Origin: Octopus sinensis
Lineage: Eukaryota
Assembly: GCF_006345805.1 (NCBI RefSeq)
Contig: NC_043013.1
Location: 53,878,001 to 53,942,000 of the forward strand
Length of the DNA stretch: 64,000 bases
Direction: 5' to 3'
Below the pieces are notes generated by a model. The model saw only the letters and a program-made list of their open reading frames with translations. It did no database searches and was not told the DNA's origin. Positions 3,175 to 34,889 of this stretch are shown here, piece by piece. Within the stretch, counting starts at the first letter, position 1. Each line of letters opens with the position of its first letter. The translations under genes and the position numbers were made by a program.

Positions 3175-3448
3175 TAACATAACAATGATGGCTAGGCACA
3201 ATATAGAACCATAAAGGAAAAATTCAGTTGTTGCTAATAGTGAGTGGAAGTGCAGGGTAGCACCTACATTGCTAGAAACAAGAGTCAAAGACCCTTCTAG
3301 CCACAGAAAGCACATTGTCTATCTACGGACAGGGAAGATAACCACCCTACAGTGAGTGAGGTCAATATACTAGCAAGCTAGTTTGACTTTGAATTAAAAT
3401 ACAGCAGTAGATTACTCCATCGCCCATGGCTAAGGTAAATCCTATGTA

Positions 3449-3497
<49 letters not shown>

Positions 3498-3499
<2 letters not shown>

Positions 3500-5440
3500 T
3501 AAACAGTAAAATTAAATACAGACATGGACAAGAACATGAAACACCACAGAGACGACACAAGAACCACAGGACGGGACATTCGAAGCCCTCAGTCATCAGT
3601 CAAGAACCAGATCATCTTAGCAATTTCGGCTGATTAATCTTGAGATTGCTCCGATATGGCCAGCCCGCCAAGGAAATCTAAGCCAAGCGCATTAGATCCC
3701 CTGGAAGAAAGCTTCGAATGTATACAACGAAAGGACGGAAAACGATCGAAGTACAAACAACAAAAATACAGAATACGTGACACCAATAAGAATACAAAAA
3801 CGTAAAAACAATAACGGTAAAAATAAAAAATAAACACAACAAACAAACCAGGACGTAGGACAAGGGTCTTTCGACAGGACGATTGAGTAGGGGCTGGCTT
3901 GTGAAGTTGTGCCTAAGGCCACGGGGAGAGACGAACAAATCCGTGTTGCTTCTGAGGCTGCTGAAAACGAAAAGAGCGCTCAACAGCGGCTAGCTGTCAC
4001 GTGAGAACAAAAGACAGGAGAAAGGGACAGATGAAAAGGGAGAGAAGGTGACGAGGGAGGAGAAGAAAGAGACAGATCGAGGGGGCTGGAGGTGAGAGAG
4101 ATAGAGAAACGTAGAAAGGGGGGGGGGGACGGATGGAGAGGGAAAGAACGGAAGTGGAATAAGGGAGGAGGAGAGAGAGAGAAAAAGAGACAGATTAAGA
4201 GTCGTATCAAAGCTTGAGAAAAAAATATACTTATCGTATAAGGACAATTGTGGATACGTAGCCGCCGATTATATAGGTAAACAGTAAAATTAAATACAGA
4301 CATGGACAAGAACATGAAACACCACAGAGACGACACAAGAACCACAGGACGGGACATTCGAAGCCTCAGTATCAGTCAAGAACCAGATCATCTTAGCAAT
4401 TTCGGCTGATTAATCTTGAGATTGCTCCGATATGGCCAGCCCGCCAAGGGAAATCTAAGCCAAGCGCATTAGATCCCCTGGAAGAAAGCTTCGAATGTAT
4501 ACAACGAAAGGACGGAAAACGATCGAAGTACACAAACAAAAATACAGAATACGTGACACACCAATAAGAATACAAAAACGTAAAAACAATAACGGTAAAA
4601 ATAAAAAATAAACAACAAAACAAAACCAGGACGTAGGACAAGGGTCTTTCGACAGGACGATTTGAGTAGGGGCTGGCTTGTGAAGTTGTGCCTAAAGGCA
4701 CGGGGAGACGAACAAATCCGTGTTGCTTCTGAGGCTGCTGAAAACGAAAAGAGCGCTCCACAGCGGCTAGCTGTCACGTGAGAACAAAAGACAGGAGAAA
4801 GGGACAGATGAAAAGGGAGAGAAGGTGGACGAGGGAGGAGAGAAAGAGACAGATCGAGGGGCTGGAGGTGAGAGAGATAGAGAAACGTAGAAAGGGGGGG
4901 GGGGACGGATGGAGAGGGAAAGAACGGAAGTGGAATAAGGGAGGAGGGAGAGAGAGAGAAAAAGAGACAGATTAAAGTCGTATCAAAGCTTGAGAAAAAA
5001 ATATACTTATCGTATAAGGACAATTGTGGATACGTAGCCGCCGATTATATAGGTAAACAGTAAAATTAAATACAGACATGGACAAGAACATGAAACACCA
5101 CAGAGACGACACAAGAACCACAGGACGGGACATTCGAAGCCCTCAGTCATCAGTCAAGAACCAGATCATCTAGCAATTTCGGCTGATTAATCTGAGATTG
5201 CTCCGATATGGCCAGCCCGCCAAGGGAAATCTAAGCCAAGCGCATTAGATCCCCTGGAGAAAGCTTCGAATGTATACAACGAAAGGACGGAAAACGATCG
5301 AAGTACACAAACAAAAATACAGAATACGTGACACCAATAAGAATACAAAAACGTAAAAACAATAACGGAAATAAAAAAAAAATAATCAAACAACAAAAAA
5401 CCAGGACGTAGGACAAGGGTCTTTCGACAGGACGATTTGA
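3498..5440 (-). mobile_element. Non-coding ~777-bp element in 2.5 head-to-tail copies inside (TA)n; hammerhead-bearing (retrozyme or Penelope pLTR-like)
   Basis: The unit start ggtaaacagtaaaattaaatacag occurs at 3498, 4276 and 5052 (periods 778 and 776). The third copy stops at ~5440, and (TA)n flanks both ends. Copies differ mostly by 1-bp indels. No credible ORF. Confidence 0.85.
3584..3661 (-). ncRNA. Candidate hammerhead ribozyme with non-circularly permuted strand order (copy 1; further copies ~4362-4437 and ~5138-5213)
   Basis: Minus strand AGCAA-UC-UCAAGA-uuaauc-AGCC-GAAA-UUGCU...UCUUGA-CUGAUGA-cugag-GGCU. Stem III is AGCAA/UUGCU, stem I is UCAAGA/UCUUGA and stem II is GGCU/AGCC. Predicted cleavage is between 3644 and 3643. 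Confidence 0.7.
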
Positions 5441-5566
5441 TATATATATATATATATATATAGTACATATATTATATATAAACAAGAAATTAAATGGAGA
5501 GATACAAATGACAATCCATATTTATGTGGCATTCAACCAATGTACAATGTACAACCAATGTTTTAC

Positions 5567-6639: not shown

Positions 6640-9350
6640 AACAATTCAAAATATTAAATTTAATTCCTCTTAATTCTACCTCAGTTCATCTAATTGTATT
6701 TATTTACCGCTACTTTTCATTAAAAAAGCCTTTATTTTTTTTTTTTATATTCAATGTGCATTTTTGCGTTTTTTTCTTCTGATTTTCTTCTTATTTTCCC
6801 CATATCTTTTCCACGTGTAGTTTCTATTTTCTCTTTGAAACATATTCCTTTTGTATTTTACTACACCTGAGACCAAAAATGCCACAGATATCAAACTCTT
6901 CAGTTAAAACTCTCAACGAAGATACTCTAAAAGAGCTAAAAGAGATTAACTCGAAGTTGAGACTCTTAATTAACAAGATTGATGAACCAACTCGATTTAT
7001 ACAAGAGGAAAAGGAAAAAGAAGAGAAAAGGCAATCTCTGGAACAACTTAATCAACATTTGACCAAATTATGCACCACCCTTCAATCTTTACCTCACAAT
7101 AATTGTATAAATGAAAATCCCCCTATAGATGATCATCATCATCATTGTTCGACCAGGGTCGAGACAATGGAATTTACCGTGCTACGCCAGACTTCATGGT
7201 CCATCATAGCATTACGGAGGTCCTGTTGCTGGATGCCTGTATCCCTGGAGATTACATCAGGGTAGGAGAGTGTAGGTTCCATCCAACCGCCTCTCAAGCT
7301 TCTTTGATAACGTCCAGGTTTCTGAGCCATATAGTAGAATTGGTTCGACTGTGGCTTTGAAGATTTCAAGTTTGAAGTCTCTACTTAGATTTGATGACCA
7401 GACCTTATGCATGTCATTACAGGCTGACCAGGCCATACCCTTTCTAGTTAGAAAATCTTTTCCAGATGATGATATGTATGACCCAAGATATTTGTAATCA
7501 GAAACCATATTTAAAGGTGCACTGTTGAGAGTATGGATGATGCAATCACTGTTGGACAGGCACTTGTTTATGTATTCAGTCTTGGCCTCGTTGAGGTAAA
7601 GACCTACACAATTTGAGGCTTGTTCGAGAGATTGTAAAAGAGACTGGGCATTGGAGAGAGAATCACTGATAAGAGCGATGTCGTCAGCAAAGTCAGTGTC
7701 TGTCAAGTATTCAGCTGGGTGTCTGGAACTTCTTCTTGGTTTTATTTCAAAGCCCTTGCTAGAAATGGTATCAACTGACATACGTAGCACATAGTCAACG
7801 ACAATGATGAAAAGAAATGGGGCGAGTGTGTCTCCCTGCAGTATTCCGGCTTTGATTGAGAAAGATGATGTTCCTCCGTCAGGGGTTAAGATGGTTGAAG
7901 ACGTATCTGTGTAGAGGACCTTGATGGCAGAAATGATTTTGTCTGGTATCCCATAGAGCTTAAGGATTTCAAACATCTTGTACCTATCTACAGAGTCGAA
8001 CGCTTTAGAAAAGTCTACAAACACCATTGCAAGATCGCGATTAAATGCTTTTGATCCTTCAATAAGTCTATAGATGATACACAGGATAGAACCCCGCTCC
8101 ACGTATTCACAATCAATTAAAAACCGGATTATCCATATCTGGAATGAGAAACTTCAAGCCAGAAAATTTTCTTTCTGGAATATCATTAAAAGCAACTATA
8201 AGGCAGTAATTTATGAATGTTGGTTAAATTCAACACCAATAATTTTACCTCGTGAATTTCAAATTAATCCCATACCAAACGAGCAGGACCAACGAAGACA
8301 ATTAAGGGAGAAACTAGCATAGGAAAAATTGAAGACAGAAATCAAACTCAAGCTTAGAGCATTAAGCAATGAACAACAATTAAAAAACACAGACAAGGAA
8401 ATATATACAGAATTAAGGAAACGTTCCCAGATGGTCAATGCTTGGAAAGTGTTTAGAAACTGTGGAAAAAACTTGTGAAGCTGAAGAGACCAACTCCCTG
8501 CAATGCTGGGAAAGACAAGCCAATTTCTTTATTAACTACGAAACACAGTTCACCATAGAAAACACATCGGCTAACCTCTTCCTGAAGAAAAATAAACCAA
8601 AAACATAACACAGAAATGACCCCACACTTATCAAACACAAACCACAGACAGTCTAGGGAACACAACTCCACCGACCTGACCTCTCTTACATCCCAAAATA
8701 ACTTTCAAACAACAAATAGAAAATCCAGACGTAATCCTCAAGGCATCCAACATACAAATAAAAGGTTCCATCGAAACCTCCAGACTAACCTAAACTTTTG
8801 GAACTGCTACCTACCAATCTACTCCCATCATCTCACAATCAATGGAAGAATTTACCTCCAAGACTTAACCCTCAACATGGTTACTTCAATCATTCAACTA
8901 AACACAACCTAATTAGACAACGTAACTTCTCCCTCCACCCACATTACAATATTGAAAATAGATTTAACCGAAACCACATCAACCATAGACAACCCTCGGC
9001 ACAACCATAATCTAGTCCACTACACGGTCACCCCACCACAATCACACTACCACAGACACACTTTACACCTGTTTTCTCCTCACCAAACCAAACCAAACAC
9101 AATACAGACTTCCCACAACAATCCACCTGCAACAACCATTTTTTGGACTTAAATCAGAAAAAACAGAGATGTGAAATGGAACAAAATACACAAGAACAAC
9201 CGAAAATAATCAACTTATCAAAGAAAATCCTAAGTATTACACAAACTCACATTCTAGCAAGAGGTTTAAAGTTTACACCAACTCCTTGGAGATCGAACCC
9301 GAATGAAATTAAGGATAACATTATGGTACATATGTGTTTTATGCAAAATC
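6640..9350 (+). mobile_element. 5' portion of a degenerate Penelope-like element, interrupted by an RTE insertion
   Basis: Broken ORF pieces at 6879- (coiled-coil-like), 8074-8322 (WNEKLQARKFSFWN...YECWL...P.EF) and 9143-9355. The last reads IINLSKKILS...ILARGLKFTPTP, the typical N-terminal motif ahead of PLE RT. Confidence 0.65.
7134..8067 (-). mobile_element. 5'-truncated RTE-clade LINE (RT domain) with 11-bp target-site duplication
   Basis: ORF 7257-8102 has FVDFSKAFDSV, GILQGDTLAPFLF, DFADDIAL, YKYLGS and LLYGSETW. (GAT)n tail at ~7134-7145. TSD ctatagatgat at 7123-7133 and 8068-8078. Confidence 0.92.
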
Positions 9351-9439
9351 TGTGATGAACCTGAGTGATTGCTGATGACCTGGAGTCACCTCTGATATAT
9401 ATATATATATATATGAATATGATGATATATATATATATA

Positions 9440-11765: not shown

Positions 11766-12865
11766 TAAAATTTTTAACTATACCCCTTGTAATTTCTGGA
11801 AGAGATTTGGAACCACCACCTATATATTGTATTGCTACTTCTCAACACCCATAGCTACTGGGCCGTTATAATATTGTTTTAGCAACAACATTGTGCTGCA
11901 ACGGGAACTACATCTTGGTGCTATTTTAAGGCAACTGCTGATCATGTGTGAAAAATCTTCCACAGAAAAGTGACATAATTGACATTTTCAGATGCATCTC
12001 GAAGTTTAAGAACTTCATGGAAATTCAGTTTATTCCGTATTTCACTGCTATCTTTTGCTTTTGAAGTGCAAAGGCATGCTACTCAAAATGTGACAAATCC
12101 AAAGAAAGCTACACCTCATGTTAATATTACTTTCAATTTTGAAGGCTGTGAGCTGATAGAATTGCTAGCTTACTGGGTAGAATGGTTAGCGCCATTCATT
12201 TGTCCTCACATTCTGAGTTCAATTCAGAGTCAAATTCTGCTGAGGTCAACTTTGCCTTTCATCCTTTCTAGGTCAAAAAGTACCAGATGACACCGGGGAT
12301 GATGTCATTGATTTTTTTAACCCATCCCACAAAATTGCTGGTTTTGTGCCTAAATTTGAAATGAAAATTACTTCCGAATTTTGGCACAAGGTCTACAAGT
12401 GGCATTTTGCCTGTTTTTATGCTCTAAATTCAAATTCCACTGATGTCAACTTTGTCTTTCATCCTTTCGGGGTTGATAAAAAAAAAACCAGTTGATTACT
12501 GGGGGGGCGATGTAATCAACTTACCCCCCCCCCCCCCGCATACATATGTGTGTGTATAAATGTATGTATATCTTGTGTCTTTTACTAGTTACATTCATTA
12601 GACTGCAGCCATGCTGGGGCAACATCTTCAAGTATTTTAGTCAAGCAAATTGACCCTAGAACCTATTTTCCTTTTTTTTAAGTCTGGAACTTATTCTATC
12701 AGTCTTTTTTACCAAACTGCTAAGTTACAGGGATATAAACACACCAACAACAGTTGTCAAGCACTGGTTGGGATAAACAATAACACAAAGACACATACAC
12801 ATATACACACACATGCACACTTATATATGTGTGTGAGTGTATATGTATATATATATATATATAAT

Positions 12866-13330
12866 AGACCTTTATATAAATAAATAACGTGAAATACACG
12901 AAGGGACGAACAAAAAAACAAACGGGTCATTCAAAGCCTTCATTCTTCAGTCAGAAACTGATCCCTGATCGCAGATTTCGGCTGTTTAATTCTGAGATCC
13001 GCTCTGAATCAGCCAGCCACAGAAGGAAAGAATGAAACGCAACAGAGACGAACATGAAACGAAAAATCTTTTTTTGGGGACAGTAACAGTTAAAAACATG
13101 GATGACATAGGCGCCCTACGGCTTTGAGACAAACAGAGAGACACAAAAACAATATCAACAGCGTGGAAAAATAAGTACCTTTTCGGTGATGAGACACATG
13201 TAGTTGAACAAGCGGCCGATGGAAACGAGGCAGCAAGTTGCAAGAGGATAAGAGAGAGAAAAGGGGGTAAGAGAGAGAGGGGACAGTGACCGAGAGAGAG
13301 AGGGGGGGAGAAGGAATCGAAGGAAAGAAA
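12866..13330 (-). mobile_element. Diverged relative of the 777-bp hammerhead element, single truncated copy in (TA)n
   Basis: It shares acggg.cattc.aagcc, tttcggctg.ttaat and gccagcc, plus the same order of A-rich segment, ribozyme motif and GA-rich tract. TA runs flank it. Confidence 0.75.
12935..13014 (-). ncRNA. Candidate non-circularly permuted hammerhead ribozyme (second family member)
   Basis: Minus strand GCGGA-UC-UCAGAA-uuaaac-AGCC-GAAA-UCUGC...UUCUGA-CUGAAGA-augaa-GGCU. Stems I and III differ in sequence from 3584-3661 but still pair. Predicted cleavage is between 12996 and 12995. Confidence 0.7.
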
Positions 13331-13531
13331 ATATTTATATATATATTTATATATGGTGGGCTTCTTTCAGTTTCTGTCTGCCAAATCCACTTACAAGGCT
13401 TTGGTTAGCCTGAGACTATAGTAAAAGATACTTGCCCCATGTACCATACAGTGGAACTGAACCTGGAACAATGTGGTTTGGAAGCAAGCTTCTTAAAACA
13501 CAGCCATTCCTGCACCAATATGAATACTATT

Positions 13532-31500: not shown

Positions 31501-31911
31501 CTGTTAATTGTTTGCTAATGCATCAAGATATTCCTGAAGAAGGAGATGCATCATATTGTCAGATTTAATCCAAACACTCTGTACAGTAAAAGACACTTGC
31601 TTGAGGTACAGTTGCACTGAATGTGAAAGCATAGGATAAGTGAATTTCTTAAAAATACAACCAGAAGTGCAATAAATAAAAACCAAAGCAGGCAAGCAAG
31701 AGATATTCTTTTACAGTCATTTGACTGCAGCCATGCTGGAGCACTGCCTTTTATTCGAACAAATCGATCCCAGGACTTATTGTTTGTAAGCCTAGTACTT
31801 ATTTTATCAGTTCTTTTTGCTGAACTGTTAAGTTACGGGGGACATAAACACACCAGCACCGGTTGTCAAGCGATGTTGGACGGACTGACACACAAACATA
31901 TATATATATAT

Positions 31912-34889
31912 ACTAACTTCAGGAAACCTACCAGCCACCTAGTCACTTACCGATCGGGCCAACATACCAGCCAAATTGACTACATCCCTGCAAGGCAAAG
32001 GGAGAGATGGCTGCTTATAAATGCCAAAACCTTCCCAGGCGAAGAATGTACCCCACAACATAGACTGGTAGTTAGTGACTTTAGGATCAAGACTAGGAGG
32101 ACAACCAGAAGACGACCAATATGGAGAAGAAGGATCTGGAAGCTTAAAGATCCTGCAAATGGACAGAGATTTAGGGACATATTACTTGAAGCCTTTGACG
32201 AAGTAGAAGGGGATAGAGCATCACAGGGGGTAGAAGACAACTGGACGTTTCTAAGGGACAACCTGCTGAGAGCCACTGACCAGATCTGTGGTTGGTGCAA
32301 AGTCCCCTCTCGACCTAGAATAACGTGGTGGTGGAACAATATTGTAGACAGGGCTATTAGAGAAAAGAGACAGGCTTGGAAGGTCTGGAAAAATGGGGGT
32401 AGCAGGGAATTGCATCAGACTGCCAAAAGAGAAGCTAGGAGACAGGTTTATTTAGCCAGAGGGGAAGCAGATAAGAAAAAAATTGCCAATGTTCTGCCCG
32501 TGAGGACCAAAGACTGGAGGTGTTTCGCGTTGCAAGACAGTGTGTGAGAGAGAATCGTGATGTGGTAGGAGAGAAGTGTGTTCGCATGGAAGATGGTTCA
32601 CTTGCGCTAAATGAGGATGCAAATAGAGAGGTTTGGAGACGCCACTATGAAAGGTTGCTGAATAAAGAAAATGAATGGGATAAAGAGAGTCTGCCGAATG
32701 TCAACCCAACAGAGGGACCAGCTATCCGAGTTGATAGTTCCTTGGTAGTTAAGGCAATTAGAAGCATGAAGACAGGGAAAGCCCCAAGCCCATCAGGAAT
32801 CACTGCAGAGATGCTCAAAATGTCTGGTAGTGTCAGCTATAGCCTAGTCACCCGTATAGTTAATCAGGTGATACACAAAGGAGTCATACCCAATGACTGG
32901 TTTAGCAGCATAATAGTCAACTGCTACAAAGGTAAAGGTGATGCCCTAGATACAAATAACTACAGAGGTATCAAGCTGTTGGATCAGGTGATGAAGGTTA
33001 CGGAGAGGGTCATAGCCCAACTAATTAGAGAGAGAGTTAGTTTAGATGAGATGCAGTTTGGGTTTGTGCCAGGGAAAAGTACCACTGATGCTATATTCCT
33101 GGTAAGGCAGCTGCAGGAGAAATATCTAGCCAAAGATAAGCCCCTGTACCTGGCTTTTGTTGACATGGAGAAAGCCTTCGACAGGGTCCCCCGATCCCTT
33201 ATCTGGTGGTCAATGAGGAAACTAGGGATAGATGAATGGTTAGTGAGAGCTGTGCGGGCCATGTATAGGGATGCTGCTAGTAAGGTGAGGGTTGGCAACG
33301 AGTACAGTGAAGAATTCCAGGTGGAGGTAGGGGTCCACCAAGGCTCAGTCCTCAGCCCCCTCCTATTTATCATAGTCCTCCATGCAATAACGGAGGAATT
33401 CAAGACAGGATGCCCTTGGGAGCTCCTTTATGCTGATGACCTTGCTCTAATTGCTGAGTTGCTATCAGAACTGCAGGAGAAGTTTCAGGTGTGGAAACAA
33501 GGATTAGAATCGAAGGGCCTCAGCATCAATCTAGCTAAAACCAAAGTACTAATCAGTAGGAAGGTAGACAAATCACAAACGCCTTCAGGTAGATGGCCCT
33601 GCTCGATCTGAGAAAAGGTGTAGGTAGAAACTCTATAAGATGCACCAAGTGTAAGCTATGGACACATAAGAGGTGCAGCAATGTCAAAGGAAGGCTAACT
33701 AGGAAGATAGTTTTTGTATGTGGCAGATGTTCAGGAACAATAAACACTGAAAATGCTCTGAGACCAACTTCCGTCACTTTCCAGGGAGAAAAACTAGAAA
33801 TAGTTGATAGTTTCCGTTACCTAGGTGACCAAGTCAGCAGCGGGGGCGGGTGTGCTGAAAGTGTAACTGCTAGAGTAAGAATAGCTTGGGCAAAGTTCAG
33901 AGAGCTCTTACCTCTGCTGGTGACAAAAGGCCTCTCGCACAGAGTAAAAGGCAGACTGTATGATGCATGTGTACGACAGCCATGCTACATGGCAGTGAAA
34001 CATGGGCCGTGTAAGCTCGCAAGAAATGAAGCCAGTATGCTCCGATGGATGTGTAATGTCAGTACTCATACTCGGCAGAGTGTAAGTACCTTGAGAGAAA
34101 AGCTGGACCTAAGAAGCATCAGTTGTGGTGTGCAAGAGAGACGTTTGCGCTGGTATGGTCATGTGGCGAGAATGGATGAAGATAGTTGTGTGAAAAAGTG
34201 CCACACCCTAGCGGTTGAGGGAACCTGCGGAAGAGGCAGACCCAGGAAAACCTGGGACGAGGTGGTGAAGCACGACCTTCGAACTTTAGGTCTCACTGAG
34301 GAAATGACTAGAGACCGAGTCCTCTGGAAGTGTGCTGTGCGCGAGAAGACCCGGCAGGACAAGTGAGTCCATAACCCGTGGCCTTCTACATGGGATGGAG
34401 CCAGCCTACGTATGCATACCTTCCCTTCTTGGGACACAAAACTCTACTTGTGAAGACCTGTGAGGATCAGAATCGAAATCGATCAATGGAAATTGCAGAT
34501 GTGTTACCAGTGCCGGTGGCATGTAAGAGAACCATCCGTTTCGCGACCGTTGCCAGCACCGCCCCGACTGGCCTCGTGCCGGTGGCATGTAAAAAGCACC
34601 ATCCGTTCGTGTCCATTGCCAGCCTCGCCTGGCCCCCGTGCCAGTGGCACATAAAAAGCACTATCTGTTCGTGGCTATTTGCCAGCTCTGTCTGACACCT
34701 GTGCGGGTGGCACGTAAAAAGCACCCACTACACTCACGGGGTGGTTGGCGTTAGGAAGGGCATCCAGCCGTAGAAACACTACCAGATCTGACTGGGCCTG
34801 ATGAAGCCTTCTGGCTTCACAGACCCCAGTTGAACCGTCCAACCCATGCTAGCATGGAAAACGGACGCTAAATGATGATGATGATGATG

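Follow-up and report, generated by a model that had tools for sequence, protein, structure and literature searches.

How does a hammerhead ribozyme whose strands stand in a scrambled order come to be repeated in an octopus genome, and does it act as a ribozyme there? The question is raised by a 64,000-nt stretch of Octopus sinensis DNA (assembly GCF_006345805.1, contig NC_043013.1, positions 53,878,001 to 53,942,000; hereafter the window), in which an earlier note, made from the letters alone, had described such a motif at two sites of the minus strand. The analysis reported here indicates that the motif is almost certainly a real conserved structure, that its catalytic core is very probably split, with A9 and G10.1 on different strands, and that it is apparently the ribozyme that Naiad-type Penelope-like elements (PLEs) have been believed to lack. 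The whole model, a split-core hammerhead with a role in the life of a retroelement, is given a probability of roughly 0.7; what is observed is sequence, covariation, copy number and copy ends, and we infer its three-dimensional fold, its cleavage and its protein partner.

The motif and its repeat unit

Both sites, minus-strand 3650-3584 and 13002-12935, carry the exact letters of the scrambled hammerhead in the A-C-B layout that had been described, with predicted cuts at 3644/3643 and 12996/12995. The S block is followed by the G block and then by CUGANGA, which is the order SGC. A descriptor covering all six orders of the three hammerhead blocks, run on the window, returned three SGC matches (3650, 5202 and 13002) and no other order, and 400 Markov-simulated windows gave eight loose matches, one of them SGC, and none of the strength of the window hits. 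The window has no match at gathering score in Rfam and no hammerhead at E<=5, and the motif does escape descriptors of types I-III, as had been claimed.

Throughout the genome (2.72 Gb), the layout of the earlier note has 6,502 matches and its 3' part 7,116, each against 0 in a reversed control. Both window variants have many copies that are 97-100% identical (40 of about 1,400 candidates were scored for each), and the unit, called family A, occurs in at least four organisms. Two (TA)n tracts enclose a tandem array of about 2.5 units, each 777 nt long (3490-5440), in which the site at 3.6 kb comes last. In the middle copy one core nucleotide is deleted, and in the third a stem I base is missing; both may be long-read indels, and single-base indels elsewhere in the unit were seen when the assembly was compared with sequencing runs. 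The unit is non-coding (the longest open reading frame [ORF] starting with Met has 125 aa), and family A units have a GC content below 50%, about 40% U and one hammerhead each. Across families the non-coding element is 660-870 nt long.

A hammerhead with a probably divided core

The fold was derived from 65 distinct family A variants among 175 copies, and covariation from an alignment of 53 of them (12 were omitted, mostly for indels or truncation); the core letters are partly fixed by the search patterns used to collect the copies. CUGANGA, GAAA and UH are present, the UH at the cut being UC in 56 variants, UA in 8, UU in 1 and never UG, and N7 varies. Stems I and III covary, stem I with both-side changes at two pairs in family A and at more in a subfamily, A4, and stem II covaries only between families. 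The hammerhead core, the S-G-C order, stems I and III and the cut site that had been proposed are upheld, and the collected homologues keep the core letters. The change of stem III noted at 12935-13014 is real, but it consists of a paired one-base insertion on both strands plus substitutions.

The main revision concerns stem II, which the earlier note had built from AGCC and a GGCU downstream of the core. This pairing is probably wrong, and the partner of CAGCC is probably a GGCUG located about 20 nt 5' of the cut, which forms five Watson-Crick pairs with the CAGCC preceding GAAA and explains the invariant C of the latter. The pattern with the upstream GGCUG is matched by 6,042 genomic copies, and in the window copy the upstream stem has an energy of -9.9 kcal/mol versus -6.4 for the downstream one. 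An upstream partner with at least five Watson-Crick pairs was found in 56/62 family A and 37/45 family B sequences (0.7-6% in a control with shuffled upstream sequence), and a downstream partner with at least four in 57/62 of family A, 1/45 of family B, 0/4 Naiad-like copies and 0/3 of family C. Furthermore, the 624 copies of subfamily A4 have AACU in place of GGCU, keep GGCUG and the core, and show new compensations in stem I and in the helix P4 described below. With its stem II strand upstream, A9 would not be joined to G10.1, and the SGC ring would be opened inside the core. The five extra letters that had been reported after A9 are present, although they are probably no insertion before stem II.

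A fourth helix, P4, is formed by the 9 nt after GGCUG and the 9 nt before the 3' strand of stem I, and thus links the strand before stem I' with that after stem II'. Four of its nine pairs show both-side changes in the 53 sequences, and it is 89% paired. A kink-turn (k-turn) consists of a C-stem, a 3-nt bulge, tandem G.A and A.G pairs and an NC-stem. The predicted loop between P4 and stem III fits this consensus, with GA on one strand in 57/65 variants and, on the opposite strand, GA in 62/65 together with a variable 3-nt bulge that takes ten different forms. On the same alignment, both-side changes affect 7 pairs and 94 cells in the revised fold, versus 4 and 53 in a fold of the type first proposed; both folds exceed all 500 shuffles in cells.

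When the flanks were folded with the core cut out, they formed a long helix, P5, which takes up GGCU, and a hairpin, P6, which ends at G10.1. In the window copy P5 has 15 bp (-20.9 kcal/mol). It would block the ribozyme in the earlier fold, and in the revised fold all helices are compatible; its reading as an anti-ribozyme helix was dropped for this reason. An automated test found P5 and P6 together in 52/80 sequences of family A, 42/43 of B, 5/9 of B2 and 4/5 of C, compared with 20-48% in shuffles. The second window copy (subfamily A2) has no P6 and has the k-turn G changed to C at 12967. A downstream fourth helix (YCRG/UYGA) was also considered; it looked fair on alignment A1 and was then outdone by P4.

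Sister families

A pattern that leaves out most of family A gave 4,006 matches, versus 37 in the control, most of them belonging to family B, whose tandem units are 780-870 nt long and show many compensations in stems I and III. In the related family B2, stem II is swapped on both strands, from GAAGG/CCUUC to GAGCA/UGCUC, and the letters after A9 stay AGGG-like despite the swap. B2 was first seen, unselected, in the flanks of three loci, and the pattern requiring both strands has 1,248 matches. The flanks of loci L057, L264 and L004 contain additional sisters of family B, in which stems I and III and P4 show compensations of a different kind.

Family C is smaller, with 11 matches (loci L281-L291), and sits in the 3' untranslated region (UTR) behind decayed frames of a long interspersed nuclear element (LINE), which we take from its motifs to be HERO-like (REL); a Pfam search of this host LINE gave no supporting match for the name. 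The layout is shared, with a k-turn that is clear in one of the three parsed copies. A hammerhead-like motif at the 3' end of such a LINE was unexpected. The same layout, with different letters, thus occurs in A, B, B2, C and, as parsed by eye, the ends of Naiad elements.

Copy ends as a possible trace of cleavage

The ends of 84 family A insertions, among the first matches listed on contig C1, were surveyed relative to the predicted cut. The 5' ends fall at +1 to +21 in 24 of the 77 insertions at risk, versus 4/53 at -21 to -1 (Fisher p=0.0011), and at +22 to +43 in 7/84. Two of the four upstream cases join (TA)n straight to +1 once TA microhomology is discounted, and four further rows, elsewhere, reflect internal deletions or duplications and do not mark true ends. 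Family B, in which 13 loci were hand-picked for diversity, gave 18/75 at +3 to +13 versus 2/57 at -12 to -1 (p=0.0011). A promoter or microhomology could contribute to the pile-up, but the edge still lies at the predicted bond in both families. The pile-up just 3' of the predicted cut is an indirect sign of cleavage in vivo, and it is fairly probable that the predicted ribozyme is active in self-cleavage.

At the other side, 81/85 3' ends enter a repeat of TA or CA, which in 74 cases happens 70-110 nt past the core. Inverted 5' pieces occur at 3/84 insertions, and the arrays are partial tandems. The element thus has a constant 3' end, is truncated to varying extents at the 5' end, targets (TA)n, and shows partial tandems and inverted 5' pieces; the last three of these features are among the PLE marks given in the available portion of Craig et al. 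2021 (PMC8557442). Contigs of four sequencing runs, whose RNA origin is only a guess, cover the unit, but contigs cannot show ends, strand or circles.

An autonomous element with the family A ribozyme was found neither among 30 GIY-YIG loci (of 147 matches) nor among 20 extended loci. Family B as the 3' end of Neptune-type PLEs was rejected since intact Neptune copies end in (TA)n without a hammerhead; the B copies are therefore separate insertions, and so is the A copy at L222. The Neptune-type PLE itself (L211-L214, L216 and L218, e.g., C1:207474000-207480500) is young, with several intact copies that encode a reverse transcriptase (RT) and GIY-YIG in an ORF of 781 aa, with an overlapping upstream frame of up to 479 aa. 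Their 3' UTR spans about 1 kb and is rich in repeats, they end in (TA)n, and the ends examined have no hammerhead core.

Relation to the Naiads

Naiads are PLEs that target (TA)n; in the portion of Craig et al. consulted, they are described as lacking canonical hammerheads and as carrying unexplained motifs labeled 'HHR_core' and 'HHR_half_core' (HHR, hammerhead ribozyme), for which this portion gives no structure. The last 420-490 nt of 48 Naiad consensus sequences, from the supplement of that paper, were parsed by eye. Ten of them (Bfor, 3_Chem, Amil, Aacu, Anas, 2_Movir, Plae, EuTe, Obim and Ovul) show the order II'-P4-III-UH-I-II-GAAA-III'-P4'-I'-CUGANGA. Their upstream stem II has 4-6 Watson-Crick pairs (with one mismatch in Aacu), stem I of Bfor has only 2 bp, and P5 and P6 are also present wherever the view reached. 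The k-turn is confined to the octopus Naiad ends, with plain bulges in the others of the ten.

By eye, six nematode Naiad ends fit type CSG, a type known earlier from two metagenome sequences; hammerheads of this type that look clean were seen at the 3' ends of 1-3_Nbra, Hcon, Hpol and Asuum. In the spider Naiads Ptep and Smim, the order read is S-G-C; stem II forms a local hairpin that separates S from G, and A9 is again unlinked from stem II. In the last 420-490 nt of the remaining 30 of the 48, no such fold was seen. The SGC, CSG and split forms amount to a single ring that is opened at different points.

In the octopus genome, 40 of 843 candidate copies of decayed octopus Naiad ends were scored. 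Those at loci L571-L590 are nearly identical to the published octopus Naiad ends, and the Naiad-like copies have no stem II partner after CUGAUGA. The window element resembles the Naiads of the accessible text of PMC8557442 in its (TA)n target, its tandem and inverted insertions and a hammerhead core near the 3' end, and differs in having no ORF; its likeness to the Naiad ends is architectural. The ribozyme type is shared with the Naiads and probably comes from them.

Proposed mechanism

The element would carry a hammerhead of the non-circular (SGC/CSG/GCS) class, with the backbone opened between A9 and G10.1. From 5' to 3' the order would be P5, the P6 hairpin, stem II', P4, the k-turn, stem III, UH with the cut, stem I, a linker, stem II, GAAA, stem III', the k-turn, P4', stem I', CUGANGA and P5'. 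P5 and P6 would close the gap at A9/G10.1, and the k-turn may fold the arm made of stem III and P4 back until it reaches the distal ends of stems I and II, where the bent arm might substitute for the loop-loop contact. The ribozyme would cut tandem or read-through transcripts of the 660-870-nt non-coding retroelement, so that each unit RNA has a defined 5' end. Supplied in trans, a Penelope-like RT/GIY-YIG protein would use genomic (TA)n to prime on a UA-rich site that lies about 140 nt 3' of the cut; copying towards the cut would give short copies, and copying past it tandem arrays. A broader conjecture, which we favor with moderate confidence, is that Naiads from different animal phyla, together with the non-autonomous elements that parasitize them and one or more unrelated LINE families, share an unrecognized split-core hammerhead with a three-way P5/P6 junction and often a k-turn, which would cleave in vivo and set the 5' end of the retrotransposition template.

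Alternative explanations and points against the model

The alternative that survives best, although it is unlikely, is a conserved fold that does not cut, or cuts only with a protein, and serves as a protein-binding signal, either for a k-turn binder or as an RT recognition site; the 5'-end pile-up would then be due to TA microhomology, RT arrest or a promoter inside the element. Proteins classically bind k-turns, the linker UAAU offers microhomology with (TA)n for about six family A ends, and the ends mostly fall at +3 to +14 and not at +1. However, no core letter is lost, the variation at N7 and H17 obeys the hammerhead rule, and the edge at the predicted bond is sharp in two families with different sequences, of which family B has no UAAU at the linker; moreover, an RT arriving from the 3' side should stop where it enters the structure and not at its far end.

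Less probable still is an intact block C of type SGC, with a 5-nt insertion after A9, GGCU/AGCC as stem II, and GGCUG together with P5 as an inhibitory switch. GGCU can form its four pairs in most family A variants, as counted above, the possible downstream helix has one pair with both-side changes, and one-nucleotide insertions at the A9/10.1 position are common in nature according to the parts of PMC4209133 and of the HRIMA-1 alignment that were available. These points are outweighed by the AACU of subfamily A4, by the want of a good downstream partner in families B and C and the Naiad-like copies, by the 15-bp helix that binds GGCU, whose invariance is largely a product of the search patterns, and by the downstream helix being 82% paired with a single covarying pair, against 89% and four for P4; in addition, the accessible sections of Eckert et al. 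(PMC10085705) report no insertion longer than 1-2 nt. Chance resemblance amplified by copy number is very improbable and largely refuted. One founder can yield thousands of copies, so the counts are not independent; against this reading, the subfamilies differ by compensatory changes in stems I, III and P4 and the layout recurs with other letters in the families and Naiad ends named above.

Several observations weigh against the split-core hammerhead and its proposed role. The number of covarying pairs alone is not significant for either fold (for the revised fold it was reached in 187 of 500 shuffles), and the shuffle controls ignore relatedness. Within family A, stem II shows no both-side change in the 53-sequence alignment, so its support comes from the loss of the rival pairing and from the sister families. 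The commonest young subfamily has mismatches in P4, P5 folds in only one of four A4 copies, and the P5 and P6 test discriminates only moderately. The Naiad parses were made by eye only, none of the five Naiad-like copies fetched has an RT upstream (the copies are decayed), and BLAST against 15 intact Neptune-type loci with their flanks gave no similarity to A or B. Circular folding of the units is no more stable than that of shuffles. Finally, the literature search found no activity for a hammerhead with A9 unlinked from G10.1.

Comparison with known hammerheads

The strand order is not new, as it was named type SGC, and its cleavage shown, by Eckert et al. 2023; the setting is new, as type SGC was found, according to the consulted part of PMC10085705, only in metatranscriptomes and in no known organism's genome. 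The window ribozyme resembles HRIMA-1/SGC as presented there in the S-G-C order, the short linker between stems I and II, the full core and a helix 'I' that corresponds to P4. In the same source, block C of type SGC is intact, any extra letters numbering no more than 1-2 nt, and its ends fall in the stretch from helix I to stem III, whereas the domain described here has its ends at A9/G10.1, ties P4 to stem III on both strands through the k-turn, and occurs in thousands of copies in an animal genome. An undivided block C, with the stem II strand 0-2 nt after CUGANGA, was not found, the distance being 5 nt at best in family A and the stem II strand lying upstream in the better-supported fold; the motif agrees with type SGC in its order but not in this respect.

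The animal non-long-terminal-repeat retrozymes (Cervera and de la Peña 2020, PMC7229834; Li et al. 2026, 10.64898/2026.07.22.740005), in the portions of these reports considered, likewise have non-coding tandem units with a GC content below 50%, one hammerhead each and a proposed PLE dependence. The portion of PMC7229834 used here gives them type I hammerheads, units of 150-450 bp and highly self-paired circles. The window units, unlike these, have a non-circular hammerhead, 660-870 nt and no excess folding stability, and so fall outside retrozymes as defined by type I hammerheads and 150-450-bp units. Type I hammerheads in a PLE context also tolerate an extra nucleotide after position 9 and before position 10.1, a single such nucleotide between A9 and G10.1 being already known from the available part of PMC4209133; they have, however, a circular order and a weak stem III and depend on dimers, whereas stem III of the window ribozyme has 4-5 bp plus A15.1-U16.1, and a single unit can fold alone.

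In the literature searched, whose coverage is incomplete, no SGC-order hammerhead in an animal genome, no opening at A9/G10.1 and no k-turn in a retroelement hammerhead were found, and the accessible part of Forgia 2023 holds no such case. A precedent for a helix at A9/G10.1 may exist, as Weinberg 2015 is cited for additional helices in the portion of PMC13725137 available. Scans of metagenome and viral sequences with rather loose patterns (119 and 120 loci among the matches listed) gave the SGC order only in a weak, long-range form (one locus, and three identical loci); the other loci listed are classical type II/III. Among them, the metagenome contigs L304, L327, L362 and L402 have classical type II hammerheads with a 1-nt insertion, located about 240 nt upstream of a type III in three of these loci and in tandem in L362. 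A different element at L213 (C6, about 12735550-12736200) has an inverted pair of classical minimal type I hammerheads with palindromic loop 3.

With the same limit of coverage, this would be the first report found of SGC-order hammerheads in a cellular genome, with more than 10,000 pattern matches. Because the proposed opening point lies outside the scheme of six permutations, current descriptors must miss whole families. The fold offers a testable answer to why Naiads seemed to have no ribozyme, and the copy ends provide evidence, of a kind seldom available within a genome, for what the cut does in PLE retrotransposition. If true, it would overturn both the assumption of an indivisible block C and the claim that Naiads lack hammerheads, and a k-turn inside a hammerhead would give a handle for protein control of cleavage.

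Features of the window

Table 1. Window coordinates of the ribozyme copies and of the predicted elements of the copy at 3.6 kb
Position	Strand	Feature
3490..5440	-	Family A retroelement array, about 2.5 x 777 nt, 5'-truncated, non-coding; (TA)n flanks at 3443-3497 and 5440-5480
3707..3721	-	P5, 5' strand (partner 3576-3590); closes the domain where A9 and G10.1 are separated
3668..3704	-	P6 hairpin, directly 5' of G10.1
3661..3665	-	Proposed stem II, 5' strand GGCUG (G10.1 = 3665); pairs with CAGCC 3632-3628
3652..3660	-	P4, 5' strand, corresponding to helix 'I' of Eckert et al. (partner 3606-3614)
3646..3651	-	Putative k-turn, non-bulged GA (3651-3650), and stem III 5' strand GCAA
3643..3645	-	U16.1-C17 and predicted scissile bond 3644/3643
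3638..3643	-	Stem I strand UCAAGA; pairs with 3600-3605
3615..3632	-	Stem II 3' strand CAGCC, GAAA (3627-3624), stem III 3' strand UUGC, 3-nt bulge and putative k-turn GA
3593..3614	-	3' strands of P4 and stem I, followed by the CUGAUGA core (3599-3593; A9 = 3593)
3576..3590	-	P5, 3' strand, containing the GGCU (3587-3584) formerly assigned to stem II
4353..4498	-	Second tandem copy of the ribozyme domain, 1-nt core deletion
5130..5273	-	Third tandem copy of the ribozyme domain, one stem I base absent
12860..13345	-	Subfamily A2 truncated copy, inside the microsatellite part of a short interspersed nuclear element (SINE); ends approximate
12925..13035	-	A2 ribozyme domain: GGCUG 13018-13014, predicted cut 12996/12995, core 12950-12944

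Other repeats are present in the window. A short repeat on the plus strand (9348-9397) ends in (TA)n and reads GUGAUGA ... CUGAUGA ... CUGA, like the boxes of C/D small nucleolar RNAs; similar copies occur at L264 and L265, and Rfam gave only sub-threshold matches (sR3, 19 bits versus a cut-off of 41). Ordinary LINE remnants with RVT_1 matches lie at 7257-8153 on the minus strand and at 31627-34366 on the plus strand.
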